The notes under the pieces are model-generated. The model did no database searches. It was not told the origin of the DNA and saw only the letters and a list, made by a program, of their open reading frames with translations. DNA of 64,000 nt from an uncultured Gammaproteobacteria bacterium (GTDB lineage Bacteria; Pseudomonadota; Gammaproteobacteria; UBA9214), in contig CALOCX010000003.1 in the NCBI GenBank assembly GCA_942491995.1, positions 139,710 to 203,709 on the forward strand, given 5' to 3'. This document shows, piece by piece, positions 44,533 through 46,447 of the stretch (the stretch's first letter is position 1; each line of letters opens with the position of its first letter). Made by a program: the position numbers and the translations under genes.

Positions 44533-44642
44533 GGCAGCTGCGATTTTCTTCCTTCTGCTGGGCGAATGAATTGATCTCGATCAATAATCACATCCTGCAG
44601 TTTGCTAGAATACTAGGTTTTATGGCGTACAGAGGGTGAAAA

Positions 44643-44948
44643 ATGGGAGACAGTAAACTCAACAAGCTGATAACGACCCCCAGGGACCCCGGCGAGGTGC
44701 AGGACTGGATATTTTCGCTGACCCCGATTGGTGTGGCATTTGTCTTTTACCTGGTTTTTATCATGTCCACGGAGATCGAACCCAAGGGGCTTTTTATCGC
44801 CCTCGGTGCAGCAGCGGGTTTTATCGGCCTGGAAACCTACTGGATCATCCGCGGCTGGCGCAATAATCATATGATTACTATTCTGATGGGGCTGCTTGGC
44901 ATCGCCCTGACCCTGGGCCTGTTGGGTCTCTACCTGTACGTCGTATAG
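44643..44948 (+). CDS. Small membrane protein (101 aa, 3 TM), hypothetical
   Basis: MGDSKLNKLITTPRDPGEVQDWIFSLTPIGVAFVFYLVFIM... Lies in a lower-GC stretch. Confidence 0.45.
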   Translation: MGDSKLNKLITTPRDPGEVQDWIFSLTPIGVAFVFYLVFIMSTEIEPKGLFIALGAAAGFIGLETYWIIRGWRNNHMITILMGLLGIALTLGLLGLYLYVV

Positions 44949-45168
44949 GAGAATACAGGGGCCTGTCCTGGTTCGGCCACCCTGGCCAGACCGGGACAGA
45001 TCAAGCCCCACTGTCGTTTTCATCCTGGCGGTCAGCCAACCTGCACACATAGTCCTGCAACAGCTTCTGGCATTGTGTGTCATACTCGCGGACGGTCACC
45101 GTTATGTTCCCATGTATGAGACTTAACTACTTTGTACCAATAGCCTGAATATCTGCACAGGAGTCGTC

Positions 45169-45300
45169 ATGAATGATTTATTACCCTCCCTGGTACTGGT
45201 CGGCGCATCGGCCTTAATTGCTACCGTGCTCGGCACCCTCGTCTGGTGCTGGATGAAGTGGTCTCAACCCCGTCGGCAGAAGCAGTATCGGAAATACTGA
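45169..45300 (+). CDS. 43-aa single-TM peptide, hypothetical
   Basis: MNDLLPSLVLVGASALIATVLGTLVWCWMKWSQPRRQKQYRKY with RBS AGGAG 8 nt upstream. Below the track size cutoff. Confidence 0.3.
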   Translation: MNDLLPSLVLVGASALIATVLGTLVWCWMKWSQPRRQKQYRKY

Positions 45301-45559
45301 AGCAGGCTAGAAACCCTCACTCCCTGGCGCCAGAGCCAGATTGAACTGAATCGCCCACCCGCCACGCTTAGATAATGATAATGCGTGCATAAAATCCCGT
45401 GATAACCCCGCAGAATAAAGTGTAAACAATTCAGTCGATAACCTGTTCCAGGGCATTCATTGCTAATCGGAATCATTTTCATCGACCAGGTGGGTTATAG
45501 CTGGGTTTCAGTATTTCATGTATGTTCAGGGTACGTCTATAACGAAAAAGGTGAACACA

Positions 45560-45793
45560 ATGGCTTTATTAAGAACCATGAATGTTGAACCTGAAATCAT
45601 CAACAACACACAGTGCGACATGAATTACGCCTGCCTCTCGGGGAAAGCCGTGTGTGATGTGGAGCCGTTTGTAGACAGGGAAGTACAACTTCTCCGCTGC
45701 AAGGACGAGAGGTCGTGCGCCTTCAAGAAAAAATACCAGGGCCACTTTATCTGTACCTGCCCGGTCAACATGGCCTCGTTGAATCTCAACTGA
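45560..45793 (+). CDS. Cys-rich small protein (77 aa, 8 Cys), hypothetical
   Basis: MALLRTMNVEPEIINNTQCDMNYACLSGKAVCDVEPFVDREVQLLRCKDERSCAFKKKYQGHFICTCPVNMASLNLN, with RBS AAGGTGA. Start moved to the second Met of track ORF 45518. Confidence 0.45.
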   Translation: MALLRTMNVEPEIINNTQCDMNYACLSGKAVCDVEPFVDREVQLLRCKDERSCAFKKKYQGHFICTCPVNMASLNLN

Positions 45794-45869
45794 TTTGCTG
45801 TAACGAATGCGCTTGAATGTGAATCCGGCATTCTGATTACAGCGACCGGCCGGCTAGCGCCGGGGAGGC

Positions 45870-46376
45870 TTACTGCAACCCTTCTTCGGGATATTCCGGA
45901 AGGTTGGTAATACTGGCATCGATACCGTTGTTGCTCGCCTTCACCTGGAACTTGATATTTTTTACCCGCTTGAAGTTCACGGCAAATTCACCGGCATTGG
46001 TTTCATTCAGCGAAATCACGTAATGGTGACTGCCATTATAGTCAAGGCTCCTGAAGTACCAGTGTCGTACATGCAGGTTGTGATCGTTATCAACGCCTTC
46101 GTAAAACAAGCATTCGACATTTTTACCCGTACCGATAGTCAGTAACTCGGTTCTTGGCAAGCCCTTGAACTGCGAGGGAGTCTCGAGCGGAAATTCCCCT
46201 GAACAGATGAACGCACCGCCCAAAGGAACCCGGGCATTTTCCTCTATGATCGTGGTGTAATACTCATCTGTGTTGTAATAATATTTCGAGTCAGCGGCCT
46301 GTGCAGTTGTTGTGCACGCGGCTGACATCACAAGGCAAAGCCGGCACAGGCAGCTGAACATGCGTGATTTCTTCAT
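45870..46376 (-). CDS. Secreted protein (168 aa), hypothetical
   Basis: Signal peptide MKKSRMFSCLCRLCLVMSAACTTTAQA, Tyr/Asn-rich mature part, low-GC codon usage. Directly downstream of soxA on the same strand. Confidence 0.5.
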   Translation of the reverse strand: MKKSRMFSCLCRLCLVMSAACTTTAQAADSKYYYNTDEYYTTIIEENARVPLGGAFICSGEFPLETPSQFKGLPRTELLTIGTGKNVECLFYEGVDNDHNLHVRHWYFRSLDYNGSHHYVISLNETNAGEFAVNFKRVKNIKFQVKASNNGIDASITNLPEYPEEGLQ

Positions 46377-46400
46377 GGTGATGTCTCCGTAAAACCCGGT

Positions 46401-46447
46401 TAATTCATTATGTAACTATTCATCAAAGAGACACAGAGAACACACTA
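46401..46447. repeat. Family-2 repeat, single arm, reverse orientation
   Basis: Reverse complement reads GTGTGTTCTCTGTGTCTCTTTGATGAATAGTTACATAATGAATTA. Sits between the soxA stop and the start of the 168-aa gene. Confidence 0.6.

Follow-up and report, generated by a model that had tools for sequence, protein, structure and literature searches.

Between a gene for a PAP2-family phosphatase and the soxX-soxA operon of an uncultured gammaproteobacterium lies a stretch of about 1.8 kb (positions 44600-46440 of the 64-kb stretch of DNA that was analysed, here termed the window) that encodes four small proteins, designated tm101, pep43, cys77 and sec168, and is richer in A+T than its surroundings. 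A first-pass annotation had taken this stretch for a horizontally acquired islet of orphan genes, resembling toxin/immunity, bacteriocin or signalling-peptide cassettes. The four open reading frames (ORFs) are present where that annotation placed them, with sizes of 101, 43, 77 and 168 amino acids (aa), among the following features.

43831-44532, minus strand: gene for a PAP2-family phosphatase (Pfam PAP2, E 1.9e-25), the left boundary of the stretch
44643-44948, plus strand: tm101, ORF for a predicted small membrane protein (101 aa, three hydrophobic segments), divergent from the PAP2 gene
44949-45030, plus strand: long stable hairpin and short U-run directly 3' of tm101 (fold -43.1 kcal/mol, z -5.3)
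45169-45300, plus strand: pep43, 43-aa peptide with a single predicted transmembrane (TM) segment and a basic C-terminus; AGGAG 7 nt upstream of the ATG
45330-45559, plus strand: conserved AT-rich region of about 230 bp upstream of cys77
45560-45793, plus strand: cys77, predicted cytoplasmic Cys-rich protein of 77 aa
45794-45869, no strand assigned: spacer between the convergent genes cys77 and sec168, with hairpins on both strands (fold z -2.2 on plus, -3.8 on minus)
45870-46376, minus strand: sec168, 168-aa protein with a signal peptide (cleavage between AQA and AD), the terminal gene behind soxX-soxA
46377-46444, minus strand: soxA-sec168 spacer of 68 bp, with a GGAGA ribosome-binding site (RBS) and a family-2 repeat; fold z -0.1, no terminator-like site
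46416-46440, minus strand: core of that repeat, TTCTCTGTGTCTCTTTGATGAATAG; the repeat spans 46410-46444
46445-47224 and 47221-47700, minus strand: soxA and soxX, a conserved operon (NCBIfam equivalogs SoxA, 194 bits against a cut-off of 110, and SoxX, 79 bits against a cut-off of 61; Pfam SoxA-TsdA_cyt-c)

Base composition of the stretch

Sliding-window analysis bore out the AT-richness that had been noticed. The G+C (GC) content of 44600-46440 is 0.496, against 0.580 for the whole window, and no other 1841-bp stretch of the window is lower (sliding 1841-bp windows: mean 0.579, standard deviation 0.029); the equally low sliding windows, 0.08% of the total, all overlap this locus. The homologous locus dips likewise in relatives (0.487 vs 0.555 in locus L019 and 0.486 vs 0.572 in L003), and the dip is an old, stable property of the locus. 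At the scale of 1-kb bins the lowest value in the window is found at 6001-7000 (0.457), a bin occupied mostly by an inter-ORF gap (6157-6965) with no tRNA or Rfam match.

Three causes would account for the dip: the share of intergenic DNA, which makes up 36% of the stretch and spans GC contents of 0.38-0.58; small products with a high content of Asn, Lys, Phe, Ile and Tyr; and a genuinely lower GC content at third codon positions (GC3) in sec168. Against a yardstick of 0.65-0.75, typical of larger genes in the window, the GC3 of tm101 (0.696), pep43 (0.659) and cys77 (0.667) is native-like, and the low overall GC of these three therefore sits in codon positions 1 and 2, where it follows from amino-acid content: the fraction of FYMINK residues (Phe, Tyr, Met, Ile, Asn, Lys) is 0.31-0.32 in tm101, cys77 and sec168 vs 0.19 in reference genes. 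Of the four genes, sec168 alone is clearly lower in GC3 (0.592), at a level close to those of soxA (0.612) and of the gene that lies upstream of soxX (0.605). Of the codons said to be favored here, AAA and AAT are indeed enriched (22.9 and 30.5 per 1000 codons in the stretch vs 9.5 and 11.8) and TAT hardly so, and the excess of the first two reflects mainly Lys and Asn content rather than synonymous choice. A score confined to synonymous codons gave z values of 0.0 for tm101 and -1.9 to -2.2 for pep43, cys77 and sec168; since soxA (-2.0) and p161, the gene for a 161-aa protein upstream of soxX (48049-48534, plus strand; -1.9), are equally atypical, this mild deviation is not specific to the stretch.

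Independent histories of the four genes

The gene order PAP2 (minus), tm101, pep43 and cys77 (plus), sec168, soxA and soxX (minus) recurs in loci L001, L003, L019-22, L027, L030 and L031, with protein identities to syntenic relatives of 70-95%; the PAP2 gene is syntenic in L001, L003, L019 and L024, and across the clade it adjoins tm101 in divergent orientation. Ratios of nonsynonymous to synonymous substitution rates (dN/dS) are 0.11-0.20 for sec168, 0.14-0.29 for cys77 and 0.16 for tm101 (vs L003), beside 0.10-0.14 for soxA, soxX and PAP2, and synonymous divergence (dS) is similar for sec168, cys77, tm101 and these neighbours. Each of the four ORFs is a genuine gene, subject to purifying selection. 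None of the four proteins has a significant match in Pfam, NCBIfam, PHROGs, PADLOC or PDB sequences. To that extent the description of them as lacking recognisable homologs stands; it fails in metagenome protein space, where all four have homologs, falling into more than 355 clusters for tm101, 71 for cys77, 14 for sec168 and a single 8-member cluster for pep43.

These distributions are as unlinked as the contexts in which the genes occur. In L007 a P-II/DUF1538 module is inserted between cys77 and tm101, and in L015 a segment of about 2.6 kb stands at the same place; in L024-26 PhoU/PHO4 genes lie between cys77 (or pep43) and sec168. Co-inheritance is thus not what is seen: the four genes differ in phyletic depth and genomic context, with other modules inserted between them, and they are therefore not one cassette. 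The hairpin after tm101 and the hairpins on both strands of the cys77/sec168 spacer suggest separate transcription units. We favor, with a probability of about 0.7, a reading of the low-GC stretch as the meeting point of two old convergent strings of genes, and not as a mobile islet or functional cassette. The plus strand would carry three independent, vertically inherited small genes (tm101, pep43 and cys77), and on the minus strand the soxX-soxA operon would have gained a third gene, sec168, for a predicted periplasmic all-beta protein.

That the whole 1.8-kb stretch was acquired as an islet bearing a toxin/immunity, bacteriocin or signalling-peptide cassette is, in our estimation, most improbable. 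Such an origin would suit the lowest GC of the window, the small membrane or secreted products, the three genes at codon z of about -2, the size and shape of pep43, which recall type I toxins or small bacteriocin-like peptides, and the look of sec168 as an orphan periplasmic immunity protein with distant relatives in mobile-element-like contexts. It is contradicted by the unlinked distributions and contexts, by the modules inserted between the genes in relatives, by native-like GC3 in three of them, and by synteny and dS values that match those of flanking core genes. Rather than being absent from close relatives, as a genomic island would be, the arrangement is whole in L003, L019-22, L027, L030 and L031, and absence from sister clades is limited to sec168. 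No integrase or transposase Pfam family was found in the called genes of L001, a locus that extends past the stretch by about 7.5 kb towards soxA and by 10 kb towards PAP2; ARAGORN found no tRNA in the window, and no direct repeat flanks the stretch. Searches of Pfam, NCBIfam, PHROGs and PADLOC returned no toxin, immunity, bacteriocin, processing/export or defence family above threshold, and no partner toxin, processing or export gene lies within 10 kb. The proposed resemblance to such cassettes thus finds no family match among genes that are, moreover, unlinked in distribution. As for horizontal acquisition, it is plausible for sec168 alone among the four, as an old event, and for the stretch as a unit it is opposed by synteny, dS, the native GC3 of three genes and the lack of mobility genes. 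Of the two outcomes named beforehand as telling against acquisition, conservation of the genes in relatives is observed and a background-like composition is not.

The gene tm101 is the most widespread of the four, its homologs (70-97% identity) being nearly all 101-103 aa in length; in L018 it adjoins nirS-like genes, with no PAP2 context. Judged from their sequences, both tm101 and pep43 would be small inner-membrane proteins. The hairpin at 44949-45030 is probably the tm101 terminator. A segment of about 180 bp that holds most of it (44989-45167) is absent from L003 and present in L019, as seen by alignment and blastn, and may be the remnant of an inserted element; the same segment bears a minus-strand ORF of 32 aa (45001-45099).

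The reality of pep43 deserves comment, since in L003 the gene has decayed, with loss of the ATG and three frameshifting indels, which had suggested a spurious ORF. That suggestion was rejected on two grounds. Relative to L019 the gene differs at eight nucleotides, comprising one replaced codon and five single changes, all five of which are third-position and synonymous; and the L024-L026 lineage carries a 43-aa homolog that is 82-85% identical over residues 1-34. The gene is thus present in at least two lineages, and within its cluster it is intact in six sequence variants (43 aa). The 557-aa members of that cluster are a clustering artefact; one, P0215, we take from its sequence to be methylmalonyl-CoA-mutase-like. 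Small single-TM bacterial membrane proteins include accessory subunits such as CydX and AcrZ and type I toxins such as TisB and Hok. Like these, pep43 is short (43 aa), with a single hydrophobic helix, a C-terminus of strongly basic character, a strong RBS and coding constraint; unlike them, it has no homology detected in Pfam, NCBIfam or PHROGs, neither an antisense RNA nor a partner complex was identified for it, and its gene is lost in the close relative L003. Type I toxins are small hydrophobic peptides, toxic on overexpression, whose translation is repressed by an antisense RNA that overlaps or adjoins the gene; with them pep43 would agree in size and shape only, and Rfam gave no match in the region (E up to 1) or in the whole window (gathering thresholds).

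The start of cys77 is placed at 45560, giving 77 aa, and not at the upstream ATG at 45518 (91 aa), since that ATG is not conserved and reads CTG in L003. The protein contains seven cysteines, one fewer than had been counted, spaced C-x5-C-x6-C-x14-C-x5-C-x11-C-x-C and including a C-x-C-P motif; in the alignment of its homologs (64-94% identity) six of the seven are invariant and C25 is nearly so. It occurs as a solo gene in unrelated neighbourhoods, beside a histidine kinase gene in one and ferritin and LysR genes in another, and the region of about 230 bp upstream travels with it into these unrelated contexts, retaining conserved blocks even in the L008-L010 alignment. A riboswitch or leader RNA in this region is unsupported: RNAalifold gave no credible consensus structure (-1.65 kcal/mol) and Rfam no match. 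The region is presumably promoter/operator and 5' untranslated region, and a conserved promoter/operator appears likelier than a leader RNA. The spacer beyond the gene (45794-45869) is a likely bidirectional terminator region. The product is probably a cytoplasmic metal-binding protein. Small Cys-rich metal-binding proteins are commonly of the zinc-ribbon or Fe-S type, and cys77 resembles them in having seven conserved Cys in 77 residues, the C-x-C-P motif and beta-hairpins in a weak AlphaFold2 model (predicted local distance difference test score, pLDDT, 55.7). It differs from them in lacking any Pfam, NCBIfam, PDB or fold match, its Cys spacing fitting no motif tested; Foldseek against PDB returned nothing with E <2, and a PDB sequence-profile search only chance-level matches.

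sec168 and the soxXA operon

The sec168 family is narrow and uniform. Its homologs share 68-95% identity and are all 168-169 aa long, with a mature part of about 141 aa that is predicted, at low confidence, to be all-beta. Conserved motifs are G(V/I)DNxHNLH and NLPEYPEEGL, of which G(V/I)DNxHNL and (E/K)YPxxGL hold family-wide. A conserved Cys pair (C58, C89), which fits a structural disulfide, is specific to the clade, as remote homologs do not have the pair together. The AlphaFold2 model built from 15 sequences is unusable (pLDDT 39.6), and a PDB sequence-profile search gave only chance-level matches. Three metagenome-assembled genomes (MAGs) in GTDB carry the gene, one of them labelled Ectothiorhodospiraceae.

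The distribution of sec168 was also approached without bias through relatives of soxA, by a scan that retrieved 80 loci, in which presence was scored where at least 700 nt downstream of soxA were available. The gene stands behind soxA in all four scored loci with soxA identity of at least 82%, in none of 21 at 65-82% and in none of 23 below 65%. In sister clades soxA is the last gene of the operon, with unrelated genes beyond it and no degraded sec168 there. The gene is restricted to a shallow clade, within which it adjoins soxA in every member that has soxA, even where the far flank differs.

This adjacency gave an initial lead, that sec168 might belong to the SoxXA cytochrome complex as a new accessory subunit or partner, by analogy with SoxK. 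In the soxBXAKL cluster of Allochromatium vinosum, SoxK (SoxXA-binding protein, Alvin_2170) is a small periplasmic protein whose gene immediately follows soxA (PMC10892978), and sec168 shares this position and strand. Like soxK, sec168 lies immediately 3' of soxA on the same strand, in the window across a terminator-free spacer of 68 bp, with adjacency in every clade member having soxA and a signal peptide that would place the product in the compartment of SoxXA. SoxK is tied to the mono-haem type of SoxA and is smaller than the mature part of sec168. Against such a role, the SoxA encoded here carries two CxxCH motifs; sec168 is missing from most soxXA operons, among them 44 loci in sister clades and in clades further removed; its remote homologs occur in non-sox contexts, one satellite-phage-like and one among unannotated small ORFs; and no Pfam or NCBIfam match gives it a family-level link to any Sox protein.

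Further evidence comes from four relatives that lack soxA and/or soxX through deletions with differing end points, in all of which sec168 is full-length and under purifying selection. L007 retains residues 1-102 of soxX and no soxA; L015 retains only residues 183-259 of soxA; L026 retains residues 1-132 of soxX, the soxX stop overlapping the sec168 ATG; and in L024, which has neither soxX nor soxA, about 45 bp separate sec168 from the region upstream of soxX, which is retained. Where a SoxK-like partner would be expected to be lost together with soxXA, sec168 is intact in each. The two loci L024 and L026 were found via tm101 and are hence free of ascertainment bias for sec168. The soxXA copy appears dispensable in this clade, repeatedly and independently deleted, and because sec168 is intact where soxX and/or soxA are deleted, it would seem to work independently of SoxXA and not as a Sox subunit. 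These deletions, and sister operons that lack sec168, led us to reject the SoxK-like lead, and a role as a subunit of the SoxXA complex is very unlikely.

Co-transcription with soxXA is suggested: sec168 would be read from the soxX promoter, given the terminator-free spacer and the retention of the region upstream of soxX in the deletion variants. A scan with sigma-70 and terminator consensus sequences returned site counts no higher than, or below, those of shuffled sequences and is uninformative for promoters. Upstream of soxX lie the genes of two conserved secreted proteins without family (48049-48534, plus strand, and 48646-49275, minus strand), both of which keep synteny with soxX throughout the clade and also in a sister clade (L040); the first, p161, has a weak match to a PagP-like PHROG (E 2.8e-6), a GC content of 0.50 and a GC3 of 0.605.

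The repeat in the soxA-sec168 spacer, cited earlier as the right-hand bound of the stretch, is real, its family having three copies in the window where none is expected by chance. This family-2 repeat, TGTGTTCTCTGTGTCYCCGTGGTGAATAGTTAC, is about 35-40 nt long; the further copies lie at 38104-38128 (plus strand), upstream of hoxF, and at 43761-43785 (plus strand), between a hydrogenase maturation protease gene and PAP2. The spacer copy is kept in L003 and L019 and absent from the L004, L007 and L015 lineages, and candidate roles are a small mobile repeat or a binding site. The window also contains an abundant palindromic repeat, GCAGGAGCGCCGTCCCCGGCGCGATT, resembling repetitive extragenic palindromic (REP) elements, with at least 15 copies in both orientations (at 4014-4216, 17472-17562, 21533-21642, 29604-29697, 43156-43194, 48542-48583 and 51392-51550); some form inverted pairs (17473-17562), and three are in tandem at 36-bp spacing (21533-21642).

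Origin and possible role of sec168

A full search with a profile hidden Markov model (HMM) of sec168 against 1.84 billion representative proteins retrieved only three clusters at 50% identity: the clade itself and two remote homologs, P0086 and P0087, each 31% identical to sec168. A fourth, weak match proved to be a repetitive artefact, and nothing significant was found for the two remote homologs in Pfam, NCBIfam, PHROGs or PADLOC. The genes of P0086 and P0087 have GC contents of 0.34-0.38 and GC3 of 0.30-0.34 on contigs with a GC content of 0.51-0.54. That of P0087 (L013, 3411-3968) has a phage-capsid gene on one side and, on the other, a block of Prim-Pol, PriCT and HTH_17 genes, a setting that looks like a satellite or integrative element; it also adjoins genes with weak matches to the Pfam families BRCT and Nuc_deoxyrib_tr. 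A remote homolog in L012 (493-990) is found among many small ORFs without family. Within the clade the GC3 of sec168 is 0.50-0.59 in all lineages, that of soxA 0.61-0.64; the value for sec168 is below that of soxA wherever both are present and falls to 0.50 in two soxA-deleted lineages. Capture of sec168 from a pool of AT-rich genes associated with mobile elements is, we infer, its most likely origin. The AT-rich gene would have entered at the base of the shallow clade, as an old event, and would since have been partly ameliorated.

Alternatively, the dip might be purely compositional, with all four genes ancestral and sec168 either fast-evolving and lineage-restricted or formed de novo, its homologs having diverged out of reach. 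This we regard as unlikely, although dS of sec168 is similar to that of its neighbours between the window and relatives, soxA and the gene upstream of soxX are equally mildly atypical in codons, and amino-acid content together with intergenic DNA explains much of the low GC. Ancestral presence leaves unexplained why the soxXA operons of sister clades are followed by unrelated genes with no degraded sec168; rapid divergence is at odds with the slow evolution of the gene within the clade (dN/dS about 0.1-0.2); and homologs at 31% identity are in fact detectable, in very AT-rich and non-syntenic contexts. The depressed GC3 of sec168 relative to soxA, down to 0.50 in the two lineages without soxA, likewise argues against it.

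Several observations weigh against the reading of two old convergent gene strings with sec168 as an addition to one of them, and temper its details. The connection with mobile elements is thin: both remote homologs behind it come from a single sample (ERZ25039549), and no relatives of sec168 or P0087 were found in phage and plasmid collections (tblastn) or in IMG/VR (pattern scan). Codon usage of pep43, cys77 and sec168 falls in the lowest 2-3.5% of size-matched native segments, so that an older foreign origin of more genes than sec168 is conceivable. Most sec168 loci were found by searching with sec168 itself, whence its constant retention is partly a matter of ascertainment, only L024 and L026 being independent. 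The soxXA deletions were seen in metagenome assemblies and MAG contigs, in which assembly errors are possible in principle. In L004 (1744-1770) and L015 (about 5857-5900) the soxA stop is followed by a perfect hairpin of high GC content, GGTCCCGGCGGCGCCGGGACC, which could terminate transcription, in which case sec168 would need a promoter of its own; the hairpin could also be an attenuator or mRNA-stabilising element between soxA and sec168. This hairpin stands where the window has the family-2 repeat. Finally, the functional guesses are weak, no structural model (pLDDT 39.6 for sec168) being usable.

As a working guess, by analogy, sec168 may act in the periplasm as a binding or protective protein, of the immunity/inhibitor type, and not as a redox or sulfur-carrier component. 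Orphan periplasmic cargo of mobile elements includes effector-immunity proteins and periplasmic lysozyme or protease inhibitors. To these sec168 bears a resemblance in its signal peptide, its mature domain, which comprises about 140 aa, is predicted to be all-beta and has one Cys pair, its very narrow distribution, its low GC and its distant relatives beside genes of phage-satellite type. It departs from them in having no match to immunity, inhibitor or defence models in Pfam, NCBIfam, PHROGs or PADLOC and no cognate toxin nearby, and in holding a single, constant place on the chromosome, behind a metabolic operon.

A bolder proposal, which we think rather unlikely, extends the capture of sec168 to its function: that it represents an undescribed periplasmic family from mobile elements, captured behind soxXA in one clade of sulfur-oxidising Gammaproteobacteria, using the promoter of that operon and by now more indispensable than SoxXA, having been kept through at least three independent soxXA deletions. 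If so, the gene would provide a new periplasmic function, for example protection from environmental or phage-borne periplasmic attack, or alternatively the Sox-independent handling of sulfur or metal species.

For the reading of genomes, the locus illustrates that a clear GC dip in a genome of 58% GC can arise without recent transfer, from dense intergenic DNA and small proteins rich in Asn, Lys and Ile. It also draws attention to four real, conserved and uncharacterised families of small proteins: a 3-TM protein, a 7-Cys protein, a membrane peptide of 43 aa and a periplasmic protein confined to one clade. The evolutionary interest of the last lies in an apparently imported gene that, once appended to soxXA, would have outlived the operon's own genes in several lineages.

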